A DNA stretch of 39,398 nucleotides from a virus, in IMG/VR virus record IMGVR_UViG_3300010167_000006, positions 1 through 39,398 of that record, one strand, 5' to 3'. The notes under the pieces were generated by a model. That model worked only from the letters and a program-made list of their open reading frames with translations. It was not told the DNA's origin and did not search any database. Position numbers and translations under genes: made by a program. Positions 1 to 39,398 of this stretch are shown piece by piece (positions within the stretch are counted from its first letter, which is position 1; each line of letters begins with the position of its first letter).

Positions 1-123
1 TCGGCGCTCGGGCACGAACGCGGCGCGGGCATCGGCCGCACGAATTGGGAAACAGAGTATTATCCGGACAGGATGAGCAGGATAAAAAAGGCGGAATACG
101 ATGATATCCATTTTCGCAGTGAA
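1..123. repeat. Terminal direct repeat, identical to 39276..39398 (circularisation overlap or terminal redundancy)
   Basis: tcggcgctcgggcacgaacg...ccattttcgcagtgaa read at both ends with no mismatch. Confidence 0.95.
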
Positions 124-153
124 AAAACAGGAAACGCTGGTGAAGATGAATGA
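1..153 (+). CDS. 3' end of the PAPS-reductase-family gene that starts at 38637 (wraps the circular junction), stop TGA 151-153
   Basis: Position 1 corresponds to 39276, which is in frame with ATG 38637. The frame stays open to TGA at 151. Confidence 0.8.
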   Translation, partial: SALGHERGAGIGRTNWETEYYPDRMSRIKKAEYDDIHFRSEKTGNAGEDE

Positions 154-277: not shown

Positions 278-904
278 ATGATTTTAATTGGATACCAAGG
301 AATAGGCAAATCAACGATATCAAGTAAGGAAAATGGATTTTTAAACCTTGAAAGTGGTAGCTTTTGGGTAGAAGGTGTTCAGGCGGATAATTGGTATATA
401 TCATATAGTACAATAGCGGAACATCTTTCTGAGCAAGGCTATTCAGTTTTTACGTCATCTCATTTGGTTGTTAGAAATCAATTGAGAAACAGTTCGCAAA
501 GGAAAATTATTATATGTCCGGAACTTGGACTCGAAGATTTTTGGGTTAGCAAGCTGGAAAAGCGATATAACGAAACGCAAAATGAAAAGAATTATAAAGC
601 CTACATGAACGCCAAGGAAAGGTACGCCGAGAACATACAGGAGCTTTTGGACGATAAAGATTACGAGAAAATTGTGATTTCTTGTGAAATATACGATCTT
701 GCAAAACTAATAAATGAGTTCTGCGCATATGCAAAATGTCCTTTCTGCGGGGGTGAGGCAGTGATGTTATCGCGTTTTATAGGCGGGAGCTTTGGGCTTG
801 GTTCGCATGATGTGTTCTATATTCGCTGTAAAGATTGCAAAAATAAAACTGAAGAATTTAAGGATAAAGAAGAGGCGAAAATAATGTGGAGTAGGAGGGT
901 ATAA
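278..904 (+). CDS. Fusion protein: N-terminal P-loop NTPase/kinase-like domain plus C-terminal Lar-family (restriction alleviation) zinc ribbon
   Basis: GYQGIGKST Walker A at the N-terminus. The C-terminus CPFCGGEAVM...IRCKDCKNKTEEFKDKEEAKIMWSRRV matches the Lar-family pattern (CPFCGG...C..C...A..W..R). RBS aaggaagg lies upstream. Confidence 0.6.
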   Translation: MILIGYQGIGKSTISSKENGFLNLESGSFWVEGVQADNWYISYSTIAEHLSEQGYSVFTSSHLVVRNQLRNSSQRKIIICPELGLEDFWVSKLEKRYNETQNEKNYKAYMNAKERYAENIQELLDDKDYEKIVISCEIYDLAKLINEFCAYAKCPFCGGEAVMLSRFIGGSFGLGSHDVFYIRCKDCKNKTEEFKDKEEAKIMWSRRV

Positions 905-5925: not shown

Positions 5926-6245
5926 GGTATCTTAACGACATATTATTTTTGCTAGGGTTCGGCGCGTTCGTCTGCGGGGTCGGCTGCTACGACGTAAAGG
6001 CGGCGTTCGTCGCCGGCGGGTTGGTATTGATGGCCCTGGGGTGCCGCACGGCGCTGTCCTTCGGGACGGCGGACAACCGTCCGGACAACCGTCCGGCGAA
6101 CAACCGCCCGGAAAACCGTCCGGCGGACATTCGTCCGGATAAACGTCCGGACGGCGAGGATATTGGCGACGACCCGGGCGGACAGACAAGGAAAAGGCCG
6201 AAGAGGAGCAGACCGAAGAGGATTAGGGGCGGTGGGCCGTTTTGA
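5922..6245 (+). CDS. Small membrane protein with a tandem (D/E)NRP repeat tail
   Basis: Two hydrophobic segments, then DNRPDNRPANNRPENRPADIRPDKRPDG. ATGA overlap with the terL stop. Confidence 0.5.
   Translation: MRYLNDILFLLGFGAFVCGVGCYDVKAAFVAGGLVLMALGCRTALSFGTADNRPDNRPANNRPENRPADIRPDKRPDGEDIGDDPGGQTRKRPKRSRPKRIRGGGPF
6071..6152. repeat. Six tandem 12-15-nt units of GGAC-N4-GTCC type (GGACAACCGTCC consensus)
   Basis: ggacaaccgtcc ggacaaccgtcc ggcgaacaaccgccc ggaaaaccgtcc ggcggacattcgtcc ggataaacgtcc, read directly. Confidence 0.9.
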
Positions 6246-30055: not shown

Positions 30056-31105
30056 ATGGATTTTTTACGTCAGCTCGACGCGTTTTACGGCAGGATGGAG
30101 TACCGCGAACCGTTGACTTCGAGTGCTATCGCGCTCTATAGCGCGCTCTTGCAAGTAGATAGAAAACTCGGATGGCGGGAAACTTTCACTGCGTCGAATA
30201 AAACGCTGGAAGTCTTATCGGGATTATCCGGTATGTCCCTGCACAGGGCCAAGAACGAACTGGCCCGCAACGGGCTGCTTATCTATAAAGGGGGTAAAAA
30301 TCGGTATAAGGCGTCGTGGTACAGCCTGCCGGTTCTGTATGATACGGAATCCGGAGACGAAAACGGAGAAAATATTGTAGCGTCTCATATTGATACGGTA
30401 AACGATATGGTAAACGATATGGTAGACGATACGGTAAACGGTACGGTAGACGGTATGGTAAACGGTATGGTAAAAAAACCGGCTCCCGGAACGGCGGGCG
30501 ATGCCTATATCAAAAATAATATAAATAATAAAAAAAACAATAAAAACATAAATTTCAGTCATGTCAGTCATGTCAGTCAATCTTTGGATTTAGATCTAAA
30601 ACCGGACGGACAAAAACCCGACGGACGGGACGGACAGGACGGACAGAGTCCGGACGGACCATATCTGGACAAGGCGGATAATAACCAGAGAATCGTCGAA
30701 TCCGCCGGGGCGATCGTTTCGGACGTCCCGGACGACGCCGAAATGTCCCGGAAAATCGAGGATTACCGGGAGGCCGTCAAGGCCAACATCGAATATGACG
30801 GTTTGATAAACATATACCGCCACAAAACGGACCTTGTGGACGAGATCGTGGGGATCATCGTCGACACGAATTTTACCGAAAGGGCTTACTTTACCATTAA
30901 CCGCAGCTTTAAGCCGAAAGCGCTCGTAATTGATCAACTGTCAAAACTCACTTACAGCAACGTCGAGCTCGCGATCGACCAGTTTTTAGCCGTCGACGCG
31001 CCTATAAAAAACAAAAAGGGATACATCCTCACGACGCTGTACAACAGCGTGATGGAGACGGAGGCGCACTACTCCAATCTGTACGAGAGCAATAAATACA
31101 AATAA
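30056..31105 (+). CDS. Replication initiator / replisome organiser (N-terminal winged-helix, central repeat linker, conserved C-terminal domain)
   Basis: The N-terminus resembles DnaD/replisome-organiser HTH. Iterons and an AT-rich tract are embedded mid-gene. The C-terminus KKGYILTTLYNSV is DUF6017-like (recalled). Confidence 0.6.
   Translation: MDFLRQLDAFYGRMEYREPLTSSAIALYSALLQVDRKLGWRETFTASNKTLEVLSGLSGMSLHRAKNELARNGLLIYKGGKNRYKASWYSLPVLYDTESGDENGENIVASHIDTVNDMVNDMVDDTVNGTVDGMVNGMVKKPAPGTAGDAYIKNNINNKKNNKNINFSHVSHVSQSLDLDLKPDGQKPDGRDGQDGQSPDGPYLDKADNNQRIVESAGAIVSDVPDDAEMSRKIEDYREAVKANIEYDGLINIYRHKTDLVDEIVGIIVDTNFTERAYFTINRSFKPKALVIDQLSKLTYSNVELAIDQFLAVDAPIKNKKGYILTTLYNSVMETEAHYSNLYESNKYK
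30392..30475. repeat. Seven tandem 12-bp iterons (GRTAYGGTARAC), putative origin of replication
   Basis: gatacggtaaac gatatggtaaac gatatggtagac gatacggtaaac ggtacggtagac ggtatggtaaac ggtatggtaaaa. Followed by an AT-rich tract at about 30505-30555. Confidence 0.75.
30556..30582. repeat. Three tandem 9-bp repeats CAGTCATGT next to the AT-rich tract
   Basis: cagtcatgt cagtcatgt cagtcaatc, read directly. Confidence 0.85.
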
Positions 31106-33696: not shown

Positions 33697-35025
33697 GTGT
33701 TTATCTCTTTTAAAGAGCTTGAGCGCGAACAGGCGCAAGGCCTCGACTATAAAATAGCCTCCGCGGTTTCCGCGATACAAAAAGCGTACGGCGTCAGCAA
33801 ACACCGCGCCGCGATAGCGTTTTCCGGCGGCAAGGACTCGACCGTACTGTGGCACTTGATACGCACTAATTTCCCGGAGCAAGCTGCGAAAACTTACGTT
33901 ATCTATGGCAATACTGGCGTCGAGTATCCGGAGTGCCTCCGTTTCGCCCGCGCTCTCGGTAAAAACTGGGGACCGGGACTGTTTCACGAGGCGCACCCGG
34001 AAAAAACCGACACCTTCGGCCTTAAATACAAGGCGCAGAAAGCCGTATTGGATCATGTCGCGGAAACAGGACGACTCGGCGAGATACTCAAGCCCGACGG
34101 AAAGCTCAAAAGCACGTCCGCGCTCGAAAACGTCTGCCCGGCGGATATGATGGAAAAATTCGCAAGCGAAAAACTCGTCTGGCCGGTAGGCACGCGCAAA
34201 ACTTATTGGTGGTGCGTAGATCAATACGGCTGGCCCCTGCTCGGCAAGGCGGCGTCGATGCTCAAAGCCCGGCGGATAAATATTGATTGTTTTTTAAAAT
34301 ATTCGAATAGCGCGAGCGAAAAAGGGAAACTTTTGGCATATTACAAACTGCTCAAGCGTGTGAAATTTTCCCAGGCATGCTGCGATATACTCAAAAAGGA
34401 GCCGTCGGAGAAGCTGCAGGCCGAGTTAGACGTCGACGTGGTTTTCAAGGGCCTAATGGCCTCGGAGAGCAGATCGCGGCAGACGAACTTCGTCACCCGA
34501 GGGTATCTGTTTGAGTCGACCCGTGAACATTTACAGGGCGACAGTTTTTGGCATTGCAACCCGATGTCTATTTGGACGGATGACGATGTATGGGCGTACA
34601 TCCGCCGGTTCGGCGTGCCGTACTCGACGCTGTACGACATGGGTTACACCGACGCCGGCGGCGTCTGCCGAAAAATCAAGCGCAACGGCTGTATGGGCTG
34701 CGGTACGGATTTAATGTACCCAAATAATCATATGTCCATGCTCCGCCGGACTCATCCGAAACAATGGGACGCCTTCATGCGGCTTGGGATGGCCGCGGAG
34801 ATACAAAATTTACAGATTGAAAAACGTAACGGGCAGATGTCTATTTTCGACTTCGCGGCCGCGAATCCGGACCACGCGGATGAGGTTATCGGGCGGATCA
34901 TAGACGAGAGACCCTGCGTTTTCGACCGTATCGACAGATTAGTAATTGATGATGAGATGTGGCCCGGCGAAACGCCGGAGTATGACCCGGAGGTGGGGGA
35001 GGAAAGGATGATAAAACTCACATGA
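33697..35025 (+). CDS. cysH: PAPS reductase-family / CysH-like PP-loop enzyme (442 aa)
   Basis: AFSGGKDSTVLWHL PP-loop, YGNTGVEYPE and MASESRSRQ motifs. C-terminal Cys cluster CRKIKRNGCMGCG. GTG start. ATGA coupling to the next gene. Confidence 0.75.
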   Translation: MFISFKELEREQAQGLDYKIASAVSAIQKAYGVSKHRAAIAFSGGKDSTVLWHLIRTNFPEQAAKTYVIYGNTGVEYPECLRFARALGKNWGPGLFHEAHPEKTDTFGLKYKAQKAVLDHVAETGRLGEILKPDGKLKSTSALENVCPADMMEKFASEKLVWPVGTRKTYWWCVDQYGWPLLGKAASMLKARRINIDCFLKYSNSASEKGKLLAYYKLLKRVKFSQACCDILKKEPSEKLQAELDVDVVFKGLMASESRSRQTNFVTRGYLFESTREHLQGDSFWHCNPMSIWTDDDVWAYIRRFGVPYSTLYDMGYTDAGGVCRKIKRNGCMGCGTDLMYPNNHMSMLRRTHPKQWDAFMRLGMAAEIQNLQIEKRNGQMSIFDFAAANPDHADEVIGRIIDERPCVFDRIDRLVIDDEMWPGETPEYDPEVGEERMIKLT

Positions 35026-35726
35026 CCGCGTCCGAACTTTTTGCCGGGCCGGAGCGCAACCCGGGCCCGAACGTTTGCTACTACTGCGGCGCGCCCTGCG
35101 ACGATACTTATCTGACAAAAACTTACGTGCGGGACACGTTTACCAACCGGGACGTCGTCAAGTACCCATCGTCCGATCACGTGTGCCGGGGCTGCGTCCT
35201 GTCCATGGGCGACGGATGGGAGAACATGCCGATGCTGGACGGGAGCGTCAAGGGATTCGACCCGCAGACGACGAATCCGCGCAGCCTCGCGCCGAGGTTG
35301 TACTCCTGGCTGATTTCGGTCGAAAAACGTCTCGCTTTTACCAAAGCCCATATCGGGTTGATACGCGGGATCCTCACGGAGCCTGATAAACTTCCGGAGC
35401 CGCCCTTTACGGTTGTGCTGACCGACAGCGGACAAAAGCAGCTAATCTTTCGCGCGCCGGTCGCGCTCAAAAAAGACGCTTTCGAAGTGATGTTAGAGGA
35501 TCAAGCGATAGAGATAACGCCCGAAAAATTGAGCACGCGGCTACGCACCGCGAATCAGATATCGACGAAACTTGGTAAACCTATATTGTCGTCGCACATA
35601 AATATGAACACATATATCGCAGCGCGCAAATGGCATTTGGAACCTTTTCTTAACGAATGGCAGGCGCTGCGTAACGAGCCGTTGTCCCGGCTCGCGGCAT
35701 GGCTGGCGGAACCTAAAGAAAAATAA
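35022..35726 (+). CDS. csf1: Csf1-like (Cas8-like large subunit of type IV) zinc-finger protein
   Basis: N-terminal CYYCG...(38 aa)...CRGC zinc ribbon; 234 aa; position upstream of the Cas11/Cas7/Cas5-like genes. Confidence 0.45.
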   Translation: MTASELFAGPERNPGPNVCYYCGAPCDDTYLTKTYVRDTFTNRDVVKYPSSDHVCRGCVLSMGDGWENMPMLDGSVKGFDPQTTNPRSLAPRLYSWLISVEKRLAFTKAHIGLIRGILTEPDKLPEPPFTVVLTDSGQKQLIFRAPVALKKDAFEVMLEDQAIEITPEKLSTRLRTANQISTKLGKPILSSHINMNTYIAARKWHLEPFLNEWQALRNEPLSRLAAWLAEPKEK

Positions 35727-35740
35727 TGGGAGGCAAACGC

Positions 35741-35899
35741 ATGAAAATAATTGGACACATTGATTTTACACCGGTCGAAAATTGCAAAAACCCCGATACA
35801 TACGGTTATATTTGCGTTAAGTGCAATGATTGCGGGCGGTTTGATTCAAACGGAACTTTAAAATCGGAATCTAAAATAAAAGAGGAGGAGTGCACATGA
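35741..35899 (+). CDS. Small Cys-containing ORF (52 aa) inside the operon
   Basis: GGGAGG RBS 7 nt upstream. CVKCNDC motif. Its stop overlaps the next ATG (ATGA at 35896-35899). Below the ORF-track size cut-off. Confidence 0.4.
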   Translation: MKIIGHIDFTPVENCKNPDTYGYICVKCNDCGRFDSNGTLKSESKIKEEECT

Positions 35900-36402
35900 T
35901 CCAATTTTCCGCGGAGCAGTTTCGTCAACGCCTCGCCGGGTTGGAATCCCCCGAACGGCGTTTCGACGAGGACGAGATCGAGGACATGAAGACGGTAGCC
36001 GTCCTGATGATACGGGCGCTGCGCGACGTCTTCGGGGATTCGCTCGACCGTAAGACGGTTTGGGAGCGCATATCGGGAGGTATCGTCGTCGCCGCCGCGA
36101 AAACCGGCGGAAGCCAGTTTTCCATAGGCGACAAATTCATCGCGGCCCTGCTGGATCACGTTAAGGCAAGCGCCAACGCGGTGGTGGGCAGCGACAACCT
36201 AAAAGCCGCGACGGCGGCGGTCAATCAAATGTCCAGGGACGGACAAAGGCAGTTTATCCGGACATGCGTCGAGTACCGTATGATCCTTTGCCTGGAGGCG
36301 CGCGAATCAGTGCTGCTGGAAAGCGCCGGCAAAACGGCGAGGATCCCAGACGTCAATCCCCTAAAAACCGGCGAAGAAGAGGAGGCGGAAGGCGATGCAT
36401 GA
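35896..36402 (+). CDS. cas11: Cas11-like small subunit (predicted all-helical, 168 aa)
   Basis: Size, helix-favouring composition, and position between the Csf1-like and Cas7-like genes. Overlaps the next gene by 8 nt. Confidence 0.4.
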   Translation: MIQFSAEQFRQRLAGLESPERRFDEDEIEDMKTVAVLMIRALRDVFGDSLDRKTVWERISGGIVVAAAKTGGSQFSIGDKFIAALLDHVKASANAVVGSDNLKAATAAVNQMSRDGQRQFIRTCVEYRMILCLEARESVLLESAGKTARIPDVNPLKTGEEEEAEGDA

Positions 36403-37486
36403 GATAAAAACGGTGAAACTCCATGCGCTCTCCACGGCGCTGTCCCCACTGACGCACATGCAGGGCAATCAAGGCAACGAGGCGGTTATCAACCGCACGC
36501 GCGTCATGTACGTGGGCAGGGTTTGCGAGGTCCCGGCGTTGTCCGGCAACGCGATCCGGCACAAGATGGTCCGCGAACCCGGCGCCAATTTTTTGGTCAT
36601 GGAGTGCGGCTTGTACGGTAAGCTCAATATCGACCAGGCCAATTTTCTTTTTTACGGCGGAAGCCTGACGGAAAGCGCGATTTCGGACAACCTCGGAAAA
36701 ATCGCCGCGATGCAGGAGTTACTGCCACTCTACCGCCTGCTGGGCGGCAGCTTGAAAAACCAGGTGCTGGCCGGCAGCTTATTGGTCGGGATGGGAACGC
36801 TTATATGCGAGGAAAACCGGGACGTCCTGGAAAAATCGCTGCCGGAGGAATTGATTTACGGGATGCCGGAACTGCGCTCCTGCGAAGACTACGTCTCCGG
36901 GTACCAGTACACAAGGGGGGATGCTGCGAAACGTCCGGATTTACTCGCGACGGATATCTGCGACGCCGATGGGCGCGAAAAGTCCAACCAAATGATATAT
37001 GCGGGCCAGCACGTGATACCGGGCGCTGTTTTTTATCACAGGTTTATTTTACAAAACGTCAACCGTATTGAAGTCGGCGCGCTGTACGCGGCGCTCTTGG
37101 ACTGGGGCGCGAACGACGGCACCATGGGCGGGTCGGGGCGGATCGGGCACGGCAGCATTAAAACGGAGATATATGCCGATGGTACAAATTTTTTCGGCGA
37201 CGAGTTGGACCTAAAGGCTTACGCAGACGAATACCGCGAATATGTCAGGGACCATAAAAACGGCATAATCGCCTGGCTTAACGAAGCTTTCCCCGTATAC
37301 GACAGGGCGGCTAAGGCAAAAGCGAAACCGGCGGGGAAAACCGGCAGGAAAACCGGCGATCCGGTGAATACGCAATCGGACGCAGCTTTTGATACGTCCG
37401 CGGATCTATCCATGGAAAAATTTGCTTCGCAAATGGATTTTTTTGACGCCGCGGACTCTTTACCCGACGCGGATACGGAGGCATAA
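36395..37486 (+). CDS. csf2: Csf2 / Cas7-family RAMP backbone subunit
   Basis: Motifs LSTALSPLTH, PALSGNAIRHKMVRE, FLFYGGSL, LYRLLGGSL and the glycine-rich GGSGRIGHGSI, arranged as in Cas7 RAMPs; 363 aa. Confidence 0.6.
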   Translation: MHEIKTVKLHALSTALSPLTHMQGNQGNEAVINRTRVMYVGRVCEVPALSGNAIRHKMVREPGANFLVMECGLYGKLNIDQANFLFYGGSLTESAISDNLGKIAAMQELLPLYRLLGGSLKNQVLAGSLLVGMGTLICEENRDVLEKSLPEELIYGMPELRSCEDYVSGYQYTRGDAAKRPDLLATDICDADGREKSNQMIYAGQHVIPGAVFYHRFILQNVNRIEVGALYAALLDWGANDGTMGGSGRIGHGSIKTEIYADGTNFFGDELDLKAYADEYREYVRDHKNGIIAWLNEAFPVYDRAAKAKAKPAGKTGRKTGDPVNTQSDAAFDTSADLSMEKFASQMDFFDAADSLPDADTEA

Positions 37487-37489
37487 GCG

Positions 37490-38227
37490 ATGGGCGATTC
37501 GCATGGAAGGCATCCCCTCAAAAATTGGCTCGTTTCGGCGTGGCTGTCGACGCCGTTGTGCGGCGACCCGCCGCAGTTGGACGCCGTCCTGCAATGGGAG
37601 ATGGCCAACCGCCTGGGCCTTAAGCACGCCAAAAAAACCGGCAGGTGGACGCCGCCGGATGAGATCGAGGACGTGCCTATTAGCCTCGCGAAACGTACAG
37701 TCAACGGCAGGGACATACATTGTTGCAGTTCGCCCATCATCCCGCCTTTATATGCGCAGGAAGCCGGTTATATCGAAAAAATACCATCCGAGTGGGTGGA
37801 CCATACGGGCAAGCGTTTCGAATCGGCGAAAATGGCCGGGATAATAGCGCCGGAATACCGAAAATCGGTATTGACCGCCTCCGGACCGTATAAGCAAAGG
37901 TTCGTCCCGGAGCGCGTGCGGCTCGTACCGCGGGTTTGTTGGTTCCTCCGGGGAGACCGCGAGGGGATAAATAAACTGCTTATCCGGATTTATGCCTTGG
38001 GCCGACACAGGTCGATAGGGTACGGAGCGGTTTGGAAATGGACTTTTGACGAGGTCGCGAATGATTATTCTATTTTTACGCCGTGTAACGGCAAAATAAT
38101 ACTTATGAGGATTTTACCCGTTGGCGAGGATCTCAACAACGTTTGCGGGTACAGGCTTTCGTTCGGCGGATACCGTGCGCCGTACTGGCACCCGGCGTAT
38201 CAAACCGAGGTCGCGGTGCCTTGTTGA
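37490..38227 (+). CDS. csf3: Csf3 / Cas5-family RAMP subunit
   Basis: N-terminal LSTPLCGDPPQLDAVL and C-terminal glycine-rich loop ALGRHRSIGYGAV; 245 aa; 3-nt gap after the Cas7-like gene. Confidence 0.5.
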   Translation: MGDSHGRHPLKNWLVSAWLSTPLCGDPPQLDAVLQWEMANRLGLKHAKKTGRWTPPDEIEDVPISLAKRTVNGRDIHCCSSPIIPPLYAQEAGYIEKIPSEWVDHTGKRFESAKMAGIIAPEYRKSVLTASGPYKQRFVPERVRLVPRVCWFLRGDREGINKLLIRIYALGRHRSIGYGAVWKWTFDEVANDYSIFTPCNGKIILMRILPVGEDLNNVCGYRLSFGGYRAPYWHPAYQTEVAVPC

Positions 38228-38661
38228 GGACGGGGAAAAACGACCACGGACCCATACACGCGGCGAAGGTATGCGTCCTATGCGCTTTGCTCGGGGCAAA
38301 ATTGGAGCTTCCGATCGACAACATTTATATACTGATGTTCGCGGCGATCGCACACGATTCCGGCAGGACCGATAATAAGGACGACAGGAAACACGGGGCC
38401 TTGGGCGTAAAAACCCTTCTCTTCGCGGACATGGAAACGACGAGGGATTTGGTCGCACTGCATTCGCAGCCGGACTCGTATATTAACAAAATCGCCTCGG
38501 AAGAAATAGAATCACTCGCGATGATATTTAAGGACGCCGACGTGCTGGACAGGGTCCGAACCGGCGACCTGGAAGAAAAATACCTCCGGACGGACGAGGC
38601 CAAAAGCCTCGTCCGGTTCGCGCGGGAGTTGAATTTATGCTTATCGAAAGTGACCGATTGA
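38221..38661 (+). CDS. HD-domain metal-dependent phosphohydrolase
   Basis: IHAAKV...AAIAHDSGR...RKHGALG...FKDADVLDRV (H, HD, H, D). Start uncertain: TTG 38221/38224 overlapping the csf3-like stop, or ATG 38143. Confidence 0.6.
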   Translation: MLRTGKNDHGPIHAAKVCVLCALLGAKLELPIDNIYILMFAAIAHDSGRTDNKDDRKHGALGVKTLLFADMETTRDLVALHSQPDSYINKIASEEIESLAMIFKDADVLDRVRTGDLEEKYLRTDEAKSLVRFARELNLCLSKVTD

Positions 38662-39398
38662 CGGACGCCGATCGTTATCACTGGTACCAAATGCTTGAGC
38701 TGGACGAACTGCATTCCCGGACAGGTATGTACAAAACGCACGTTAAATTAACTATGGAAATAATTGTAAAGTTTATTGAAAAGAACCTGAACTACTATGT
38801 CGCCGTCTCCTGGGGTAAAGACAGCGTCGTTTTAGCCCATATGTTCCATTTTGCCAGCGCGAAATGCAAATATTACTATCTGCACAACATTTTTAGGGAA
38901 ACTGAAGGCTGCCTTGCTGTTCGGAATGAATTTTTAAGCAGATATCCGATCGAATACGAGGAAATCGTATACAATTACGCCGAAGCCGACGAAACCTATT
39001 TCGACTTAAAGGGAAGGCCCGCGAAATGGTACAACATCAGAAAAGGCTTGCATAAAAAACACGATATACACGTGACGGGTGTCAGAAGCGACGAAAGCGC
39101 GGAACGGAGGATGCGTTTTAAATATTTCGGGCTGGAAACGGAAAAAACCTTCGCGCCGTTTATGCATATGGAAGCGCGGGACATTTTCGCATATCTGTTG
39201 GTTAACGATTTGCCCACCCACCCGAATTACGCCATGACCGGCGGCGGCAGGTGGGACAAATACAGGATTCGAGTTTCGGCGCTCGGGCACGAACGCGGCG
39301 CGGGCATCGGCCGCACGAATTGGGAAACAGAGTATTATCCGGACAGGATGAGCAGGATAAAAAAGGCGGAATACGATGATATCCATTTTCGCAGTGAA
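38637..39398 (+). CDS. Second PAPS reductase-family PP-loop protein (continues to 153 across the junction, 264 aa in total)
   Basis: VAVSWGKDSVVLAHM PP-loop and VTGVRSDESAERR motifs. Overlaps the HD gene by 25 nt. Open to the window end. Confidence 0.7.
   Translation, partial: MLIESDRLTDADRYHWYQMLELDELHSRTGMYKTHVKLTMEIIVKFIEKNLNYYVAVSWGKDSVVLAHMFHFASAKCKYYYLHNIFRETEGCLAVRNEFLSRYPIEYEEIVYNYAEADETYFDLKGRPAKWYNIRKGLHKKHDIHVTGVRSDESAERRMRFKYFGLETEKTFAPFMHMEARDIFAYLLVNDLPTHPNYAMTGGGRWDKYRIRVSALGHERGAGIGRTNWETEYYPDRMSRIKKAEYDDIHFRSE
39276..39398. repeat. Terminal direct repeat, identical to 1..123
   Basis: Read directly, 123/123 identity. Confidence 0.95.

Follow-up and report, generated by a model that had tools for sequence, protein, structure and literature searches.

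The window analysed here is the whole 39,398-nt stretch of the virus record IMGVR_UViG_3300010167_000006, and it carries a type IV-B CRISPR-Cas operon in which a small gene for a predicted HD-domain phosphohydrolase (HD) stands between csf3 and a cysH-like gene. A 123-bp terminal direct repeat (positions 1-123 equal 39276-39398) marks the record as a circular assembly with a unit of 39,275 bp. Judging by gene content, it is a complete temperate siphovirus genome, with genes for a large terminase, portal, major head protein, tape measure, tail fibre and integrase, together with a DnaD-like loader, a ParB-like protein and a Dam-type methyltransferase. From position 33697 onward, the plus strand holds a dense run of genes, most of them overlapping, which begins with a 442-aa phosphoadenosine phosphosulfate (PAPS) reductase-like gene (CysH1), continues through csf1, cas11, csf2, csf3 and HD, and ends with a shorter cysH-like gene (CysH2) that crosses the circular junction (Table 1). 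The comparisons set out below lead us to regard HD as a rare but dedicated accessory with a function in the type IV-B/CysH module, a reading to which we give a probability of roughly 0.75.

The HD open reading frame (ORF) can extend from TTG 38143 as far as the stop at 38661, at most 172 aa, and homologues support a start at TTG 38221 or 38224, which would give a protein of 146 or 145 aa. The first-pass annotation of this sequence had the start of the gene overlapping the preceding stop, and so it does: at TTG 38221 the overlap with csf3 (stop codon TGA 38225-38227) amounts to 7 nt. An identical 7-nt overlap is present in the closest relative (contig L001), in which the 25-nt overlap of HD with cysH is likewise conserved, and these overlaps suggest that translation of HD is coupled within the operon. 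The same annotation had recognised an HD signature in the ORF after the Cas5-like gene. All four of its motifs (IHAAKV, AIAHDSGR, KHGALG and KDADVLDRV) are present, at conserved positions of an alignment of 17 family sequences, so the motif residues are indeed conserved. In that alignment, H12 occurs in every sequence that covers its position, H44, D45, H57, G58, H80, D84, K103, D104 and D106 are invariant, and so are R110, R112, D115 and R122. The conserved metal motif has the pattern H..HD..H..H..D (H12, H44-D45, H57, H80, D104/D106), and it is followed by an invariant basic tail peculiar to the family, DRxRTxDLxxxYLR, which is plausibly a phosphate-binding surface. The window protein lies just over the cut-off of the Pfam HD model PF01966 (24.0 bits against 22); the model matches 17 of the 17 family members, the best at E = 5e-14, which is far beyond chance. 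An AlphaFold2 model built with 28 sequences is an all-helical eight-helix bundle (predicted local distance difference test score 93, predicted template modelling score 0.88). These data support the prediction that the gene encodes a catalytically intact, metal-dependent phosphohydrolase.

When the model was compared with the PDB using Foldseek, the matches included 2pq7, the PPX/GppA C-terminal domain, YqeK-like proteins, PgpH, phosphodiesterases (PDEases) and HD-GYP proteins, at template modelling (TM) scores of ~0.5-0.6. Down to rank 49 the matches were HD-fold or related phosphohydrolases/phosphodiesterases, bar one tRNA-synthetase chain at rank 35, with E values of 0.015 or higher, and a viral structure library returned uncharacterised phage HD proteins only. 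A search of PDB sequences with the HD family profile gave the HD-GYP cGAMP phosphodiesterase V-cGAP3 at 2e-7, over the N-terminal motif only, and, at full length, YpgQ-like 3dto (1.5e-4), 2pq7, 3b57 and 5dqv (E 1.5e-4 to 5e-3); a type III-D Cas10 chain (8bmw_K) matched weakly at E = 0.041. The Pfam model PDEase_I, for cyclic-nucleotide PDEs, matches 8 of the 17 family members (best 8.8e-7). Neither the window protein nor any of the 17 members matched a Cas3_HD or Cas10 model of Pfam or NCBIfam at E <= 1, and Cas3 chains were absent both from the PDB sequence matches at E <= 1 and from the top 50 Foldseek matches. By sequence and predicted fold, the nearest characterised relatives of HD are small phosphohydrolases/phosphodiesterases and not Cas3, which is in keeping with the caution, voiced in the first-pass annotation, that the motif might not denote a Cas3-type nuclease. 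The extended H..HD..H..H..D motif is a mark of dinuclear sites, as in Cas3, Cas10, PDEases, HD-GYP and YqeK, mostly phosphodiesterases, whereas YpgQ (5DQV) is mononuclear (PMC8177086). The two further invariant histidines of the HD family therefore suggest a dinuclear site, unlike that of YpgQ. Since the protein, at ~140 aa, is a bare HD core, its substrate specificity is probably set by a partner protein.

Homologues of HD were collected by an exhaustive HMMER search, which gave 639 relatives at E <= 0.001, about a dozen of them small (130-148 aa) and close. A word-indexed protein search with HD returned only the protein itself, and tblastn of HD and of the 263-aa CysH2 against GenBank phages gave no match. 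HD homologues were found in 12 other contigs, and all of those with readable context lie in csf/cysH loci; the flank of one homologue (L322, 582 bp) is too short for its neighbours to be read. The closest relative (L001, also L006 and L084), whose HD is 56% identical to that of the window, is arranged csf1-cas11-csf2-csf3-HD-cysH, and all six genes recur in full order in L221 (P0123) and L320/L321 (P0126). Less of the module, or a different order, is seen elsewhere: csf1-cas11-csf2-csf3-HD followed by the contig end in L140 (also L222; P0124), csf3-HD-cysH in L220 (P0122), csf2-HD-cysH in L223 (P0125), HD followed by a PAPS reductase and a next gene in the P0128 contig, and csf1-cas11-csf2-cysH-HD-csf3 in L089. 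Wherever the flank is present (10 contigs and the window), the HD gene or domain adjoins cysH, and it does so in four gene orders: csf3-HD-cysH, csf2-HD-cysH, cysH-HD-csf3 and cysH-HD::csf3, the last being a gene fusion. In no homologous phage with readable context was the HD gene found freely separated from csf/cysH genes, in agreement with its earlier assignment to the Cas-like operon.

A neighbour-joining tree of 207 HD domains places the csf-linked HDs (the fused ones excepted) and the small representatives in a 21-member clade that contains no cellular sequence; this is a distance tree without support values, in which the clade is seen after re-rooting on the most distant sequence and is unresolved under midpoint rooting. 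No csf genes were found near the best 80 HD relatives in species-representative genomes, which come from Anaerococcus, Bacillaceae and various metagenome-assembled genomes (MAGs) and are <=39% identical, and none were found near the other metagenomic/viral HD matches.

In a distant csf clade, an HD domain and Csf3 are joined in one protein of 385-402 aa overall. The two examples, L090 (402 aa; L090:6434-7642) and L091 (387 aa; L091:2998-4158), are 92% identical and come from two independent assemblies, with the Pfam HD domain at residues 19-130 and the Csf3 PHROG at 234-375; a database cluster, P0272, has a length of 385 aa, the domains PF01966 + PF27782 and 47 member sequences. Directly past HD::Csf3 in L090 lies a Cas6 gene (L090:7593-8312; PF01881 1.4e-16, PF21350 1.8e-8), and no CRISPR array was found near it in 16.9 kb. 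By its predicted domains, the fusion clade unites cysH, HD-Cas5 and Cas6. The nearest relatives of the fused HD half are cellular proteins of ~450 aa with a C-terminal HD, such as a Bacillus cereus HD-domain protein. A similar build, with a related C-terminal HD, was also observed in ~470-510-aa proteins of human-gut phages (L093-L139, e.g. L103:8939-10468), whose N-terminal region matches only phrog_4776 (function unknown) and which have no csf genes nearby. The ~450-aa C-terminal-HD proteins were considered as CCA-adding enzymes and ruled out, as they have the HD only and no nucleotidyltransferase domain.

The effector genes themselves are divergent, although the PADLOC type IV models assign all four without ambiguity (Table 1). 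The csf2 family profile matches the type IV-B Csf2 of PDB 7JHY at 1e-9, and the NCBIfam Csf equivalogs match the window Csf proteins at scores that are all below the cut-offs, so the window Csf proteins must be regarded as divergent. The window holds no array-like repeats and gave no Rfam match. No Cas6, DinG/RecD helicase or adaptation genes were found in it, the Cas6 profiling having covered some but not all small ORFs, and its ORFs of >500 aa encode only the terminase, tape measure, a structural protein and tail fibre, which leaves no helicase among them. Judged from its predicted genes, the operon is type IV-B by every testable criterion (csf1, cas11, csf2, csf3 and a cysH-like gene, without an array), and type IV-B architectures of the same kind have been described (PMC7038947, PMC8175902), including from prophages and viruses (PMC7038947, PMC10848311). 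Type IV-B complexes bind heterogeneous non-CRISPR RNA (PMC7937560), and here it is the homology of Csf2 to the 7JHY chain alone that suggests assembly of an RNA-bound Csf filament.

To survey related loci, Csf2 was used as the seed. Against GenBank phages, tblastn gave one distant match only, Skermania phage SPI1; a viral scan with a single Csf2 sequence gave no match, and it was an alignment-based Csf2 scan that found the loci. Csf2 homologues numbered 292 at E <= 0.001. Sampled were 78 viral loci with Csf2 relatives, several metagenomic contigs and, as annotated records, one plasmid each from Rhodococcus and Thermococcus and the Skermania phage SPI1. All ORFs of the sampled loci were profiled by searches seeded with the window proteins, and 63 distinct viral loci were evaluable. 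Prophages of Clostridioides difficile also carry a module of this kind, of clade B (P0344 and P0346).

Table 1. Operon genes of the window, with positions on the 39,398-nt record and the matches by which they were assigned
Feature	Positions	Strand	Evidence
442-aa PAPS-reductase-like (CysH1)	33697..35025	+	PF01507 5.5e-25; phrog_424 4.8e-34
csf1, type IV large subunit, Cas8-like	35022..35726	+	PADLOC typeIV_Cas8 3.4e-60; TIGR03114 1.6e-11 (below cut-off)
57-aa Cys-rich ORF, status uncertain	35726..35899	+	ORF list
cas11, type IV small subunit	35890..36402	+	PADLOC typeIV_Cas11 1.8e-21; position kept in relatives
csf2, Cas7 backbone subunit	36395..37486	+	PADLOC typeIV_Cas7 4.4e-84; phrog_22746 8e-70
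csf3, Cas5 subunit	37490..38227	+	PADLOC typeIV_Cas5 1.3e-31; phrog_34599 1.9e-32
HD-domain phosphohydrolase (predicted), ~146 aa	38221..38661 (maximal ORF from 38143)	+	PF01966 24.0 bits
cysH-like PP-loop protein (CysH2, 263 aa), 5' part	38637..39398	+	PF01507 6.5e-9
Same 263-aa cysH-like gene, 3' end past junction	1..153	+	stop codon ends at 153

The short PAPS-reductase-family gene after HD had been read in the first-pass annotation as a 264-aa ORF with an SWGKDS motif, overlapping HD and wrapping the circular junction. The PP-loop motif SWGKDS, the 25-nt overlap (from ATG 38637) and the crossing of the junction (to unit coordinate 153) all stood, and the length was corrected to 263 aa. CysH2 scores 36.5 bits with PF01507 against a cut-off of 22.5, and SWGKDS is invariant in a three-sequence CysH2 alignment. 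Its scores with the equivalogs for bona fide CysH lie far below their cut-offs (NF002537 23.7 bits, cut-off 154; TIGR00434 15.6, cut-off 165), a profile of the short CysH found no PDB sequence at E <= 0.01, and CysH2 has no cysteine past residue 92. The CasCysH of type IV-B lacks the C-terminal catalytic cysteine (PMC8175902). From these features, CysH2 is predicted to be a PP-loop, ATP-pyrophosphatase-type enzyme without the C-terminal catalytic cysteine of real CysH.

Its counterparts are widespread. A PAPS-reductase-family gene lies inside the csf module in 54 of the 63 evaluable viral loci; these genes encode ~220-300 aa and are found right after csf3 or, in a more distant clade, between csf2 and csf3. 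Orthologues of CysH2 after csf3 reach 57% identity in L001 and 54% in L004, with E values of 1e-28 to 1e-96 within the near clade. Genes of the same kind, of 264 aa and 224 aa, are present in the plasmid IV-B loci of Rhodococcus and Thermococcus, respectively, and the cysH-like gene of Skermania phage SPI1 is likewise syntenic with csf genes. Profiles of the CysH1 and CysH2 types run on the plasmid CysH proteins were weakly informative (65 vs 46 bits for Rhodococcus, 40 vs 40 for Thermococcus). The association of cysH with type IV-B has been called 'nearly invariant' (PMC7038947; PMC8175902). Mainly on the basis of synteny and size, CysH2 is the canonical type IV-B cysH-like partner and not an extra, and the earlier description of it as a second PP-loop enzyme appended to the operon is not supported.

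The upstream gene, CysH1, is of another kind. It overlaps csf1 by 4 nt in the window and belongs to phrog_424, a family with weak similarity to the N-termini of DndC and BrxP. Homologues with 45.6-67% identity are present in 16 other viral contigs (L224-L239), none of which has csf, HD or short cysH genes around the homologue in the available flanks (<=8 kb). In the closest relative (L001 = L006) the CysH1 homologue lies ~7.7 kb upstream of csf1, with some seventeen unrelated genes in between. Its stand-alone occurrence in 16 contigs and its distance from csf1 in the relative mean that the abutment with csf1 is not conserved, and CysH1 is probably not part of the Csf system but a separate phage gene that happens to adjoin csf1 here. 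The first-pass annotation had tied this gene to the Cas-like operon and had proposed that two PP-loop enzymes bracket the effector genes; with its homologues freely separated from csf genes, neither proposal survives. CysH1 has an insertion of ~100 residues between the PP-loop and the remaining domain, and a C-terminal cysteine cluster (CRKIKRNGCMGC). Longer PAPS genes in five csf loci (L020, L027, L029, L046 and L081) had no significant match to the window CysH1 in a direct search.

The slot after csf3, or between csf3 and cysH, is occupied by different enzymes in different lineages of related phage type IV-B loci. A SpoU/SPOUT methylase-like protein (PF00588, cut-off 29.7) is encoded there in L022 (L022:10636-11061, 32.3 bits) and, at 29.5 bits, in L026 (L026:11597-12016), and sequences of ~125-140 aa in L018, L023 and L065 look similar by eye only. 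In L029 the slot holds an N6/N4 DNA-methylase-like gene (L029:11498-12061) followed by a ~375-aa PAPS reductase and a short cysH; L027 has a resembling arrangement in which the corresponding protein has no Pfam match. A Pfam-confirmed pair of B12-binding and radical-SAM proteins replaces cysH in L002 (L002:9654-12250; duplicates L003 and L007), and such a pair is suggested by sequence similarity alone in L008, L010, L013 and L015. The slot is filled by a ~500-aa ORF in L074 and by a family-2 glycosyltransferase in L056 (L056:1562-2272). An AcrVA2-like gene (PF26125) was observed ~340 bp downstream of the csf module of L002, a Peptococcaceae MAG prophage, on the minus strand (L002:12586-13596). 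In the window, the first gene past the cysH-like gene, separated from the operon by a 125-bp spacer, encodes a 208-aa protein (278-904, plus strand) with a Lar restriction-alleviation domain at its C-terminus (PF14354, 30.8 bits, cut-off 28.6) and, by eye, a P-loop-like GIGKST at its N-terminus. The slot enzymes and the Lar-domain and AcrVA2-like neighbours fit a role in nucleic-acid modification or counter-defence, and do not prove one.

Several observations weigh against HD being a dedicated accessory that acts on nucleic acid within the complex. The HD gene was found in none of the 63 evaluable csf2-seeded viral loci; one further csf2-seeded locus has it, namely L006 (the L001 contig), which had been set aside since too little sequence is present past csf3. 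HD is rare among csf loci, and the system must therefore work without it. Many of the supporting contigs are short, and four contexts end within or just past the module. In the tree, the HD of the L090/L091 fusion is not a member of the csf-HD clade and groups closer to the ~450-aa C-terminal-HD proteins; it may not be orthologous to the window HD, and recruitment of an HD to the Csf3/CysH junction may have happened twice. The substrate of HD, its metal and its binding to the complex are all inferred. In sequence and fold it is closest to small-molecule hydrolases and cyclic-nucleotide phosphodiesterases (YpgQ-like, YqeK-like, PgpH, PDEases and PPX/GppA), and with neighbours of this type, at TM ~0.5-0.6, a nucleotide substrate is favoured at least equally with nucleic acid.

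In our proposed mechanism, HD would be an optional extra subunit that docks at the Csf3 (Cas5) end of an RNA-bound Csf filament, beside CysH, and adds a step of phosphoester hydrolysis to the chemistry of CysH. Cas5 is the subunit that caps the RNA 5' end in class 1 complexes, which would place an HD joined to Csf3 at the same end of the filament. The extended H..HD..H..H..D motif would make HD a two-metal phosphodiesterase, and its substrate could be nucleic acid held by the complex, either through trimming or processing of an RNA end or through cleavage of the bound strand. That HD hydrolyses a phosphoester on complex-held nucleic acid, together with the CysH-like ATP-pyrophosphatase, comes in our estimate a little short of an even chance; that it acts instead on a nucleotide substrate or product of CysH, or on a signalling nucleotide, is somewhat less probable but a serious candidate; and a Cas3-like role as a processive DNA nuclease is less likely. 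The enzymatic output coupled to the ribonucleoprotein that had been suggested in the first-pass annotation keeps one of its elements, the tie of HD to the Csf module, and loses the other, the upstream PP-loop enzyme.

Other explanations of the HD gene were weighed against the same evidence. HD could be a stand-alone Cas3''-like or Cas10-HD-like DNA nuclease that degrades target DNA under guidance of the Csf complex, given that HD domains serve as the nucleases in Cas3, in Cas10 and in the large, Cas10-like subunit of type IV-C (PMC8175902; PMC7038947), that the extended metal motif is common to Cas3 and Cas10, that the Csf3 fusion puts HD on the effector complex, and that the profile matches the III-D Cas10 weakly. 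We consider this quite unlikely: no Cas3_HD or Cas10 model and no Cas3 structure was matched within the limits given above, the window is without a CRISPR array, a Cas6 gene or a helicase, the one constant neighbour of HD is cysH and not a large subunit, and the RNA bound by type IV-B complexes is heterogeneous and non-CRISPR (PMC7937560). It is somewhat easier to picture HD as a small-molecule nucleotide phosphohydrolase, coupled to CysH-like chemistry or to counter-defence, that would clear a product or by-product of the PP-loop enzyme (an AMP adduct, or a PPi-like or PAP-like compound) or degrade a signalling nucleotide or dNTP. Its best full-length PDB matches are nucleotide pyrophosphohydrolase-like members of the YpgQ family, the Foldseek matches include YqeK-like Ap4A hydrolases, PgpH, HD-GYP and PDEases, PDEase_I matches about half of the family, HD adjoins cysH wherever the flank is present, and the surroundings are counter-defence-like, with the Lar-domain gene past the window operon and the AcrVA2-like gene near the L002 module. 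However, one would hardly expect an enzyme of free metabolites to be fused to the structural Cas5 subunit, the bare ~140-aa core lacks the added lid or regulatory elements that nucleotide-specific HD enzymes usually have, and the similarities are all weak (TM 0.5-0.6), which leaves this explanation doubtful.

A three-enzyme output module, in which the 442-aa and 263-aa PP-loop enzymes bracket the effectors and act with HD, might be read from the 4-nt overlap of CysH1 with csf1, from the presence of both PP-loop genes on one contig in the closest relative, and from a longer PAPS-reductase gene beside the short one in 5 of the 63 viral csf loci. The ~7.7-kb displacement of CysH1 in that same relative, the 16 contigs in which its homologues are flanked by neither csf nor HD nor short cysH genes in the sequence available, and the dissimilarity of those longer PAPS genes to CysH1 make such a module very improbable, and the synteny survey has already largely refuted it. 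Finally, chance insertion of HD between csf3 and cysH as an unrelated moron would be in keeping with its rarity among csf loci and with the plentiful stand-alone HD genes of phages, but hardly at all with its repeated presence beside cysH in some ten distinct loci and four gene orders, its dedicated clade, the conserved gene overlaps and the fusion to Csf3 in a distant clade; we regard this as barely credible.

Compared with the type IV-B system of the Mycobacterium sp. JS623 plasmid (PDB 7JHY), the window system agrees in its four effector genes and their order and in having a short cysH-like gene, is carried on a mobile element, and shares the lack of a CRISPR array, Cas6, adaptation genes and helicase. 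It differs in residing on a temperate siphovirus and not on an actinobacterial plasmid, in its very divergent proteins, and in the HD gene between csf3 and cysH. Type IV-C is similar in being a type IV effector with an HD domain on a complex subunit, but there a Cas3-HD-like domain forms the N-terminus of a Cas10-like large subunit that takes the place of Csf1, and the system lacks cysH (PMC8175902), whereas the window keeps Csf1 and has a separate HD of ~146 aa, beside cysH, without specific similarity to Cas3 or Cas10 HDs. With Cas3''/Cas3 HD nucleases, the window HD has in common the superfamily, the extended H..HD..H..H..D motif and the setting in a class 1 cas operon; it is much shorter and has no Cas3 model or structure match, helicase partner or array. 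The YpgQ family (5DQV, 3DTO, 2PQ7, 3B57) and the YqeK Ap4A hydrolases are its best full-length sequence and fold neighbours, being small all-helical HD cores with a 'DA/CD-LD' motif, at a similarity that is weak (E 1e-4 to 5e-3, TM 0.5-0.6). YpgQ is mononuclear (H..HD..D), about 205 aa long and chromosomal; the window HD family has two extra conserved histidines and a DRxRTxDLxxxYLR tail of its own, is ~140 aa long and, as far as context could be read, occurs in csf/cysH loci only.

The sole HD described in type IV is that of the Cas10-like large subunit of IV-C (PMC8175902), and no description of an HD accessory or an HD-Cas5 fusion in type IV-B was found in the open-access papers and bioRxiv preprints searched, so that the first-pass suggestion of an undescribed variant holds for that literature. 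Type IV-B on prophages and viruses and its association with cysH were already known; the HD accessory and the HD-Cas5 fusion are probably new. Alone among CRISPR-Cas subtypes, type IV-B still has no known function, and reviews have placed the key to it in the cysH-like partner (PMC7038947, PMC8175902). HD gives a fresh clue, in that it hints at phosphoester chemistry and, by standing beside cysH and being fused to Cas5 in one lineage, suggests that the accessory enzymes likely act at the Cas5 end of the complex, which by analogy with other class 1 complexes would be the RNA 5' end. Together with the other enzymes at the slot, it supports nucleic-acid modification or processing over classical interference for the phage systems.

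One could go further and see phage type IV-B Csf filaments as RNA-scaffolded platforms for interchangeable nucleic-acid-modifying or -processing enzymes, in which the near-universal CysH is supplemented or replaced by HD, a SPOUT methyltransferase, B12/radical-SAM proteins, an N6/N4-type methyltransferase or a glycosyltransferase, and in which the HD variant would cut or trim captured nucleic acid as counter-defence. This broader scheme is speculative and, taken whole, unlikely; were it true, the HD variant would be a hydrolase-armed type IV-B subtype, with targets such as host CRISPR RNAs or other small RNAs. The set csf1-cas11-csf2-csf3-HD-cysH, at about 4.4 kb, is compact and expressible, and could be used for reconstitution.

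Some minor features of the window were also recorded. The 57-aa ORF between csf1 and cas11 has CxxC-type cysteine pairs and is zinc-ribbon-like; it matched no family among the Pfam, NCBIfam, PHROG and PADLOC models and had no homologue in any fetched locus, and in related loci cas11 follows csf1 directly, with no counterpart of this ORF in between. Scans for promoters and terminators, which covered the surroundings of the operon and the junction, gave background level only. Two coding tandem repeats were seen elsewhere in the genome: a 27-nt unit repeated 3.1 times (6067-6150) between the terminase and portal genes, and a 12-nt unit repeated 6.9 times (30392-30474) within the DnaD-like replication gene, where it gives rise to a repeated DMVN-type peptide.

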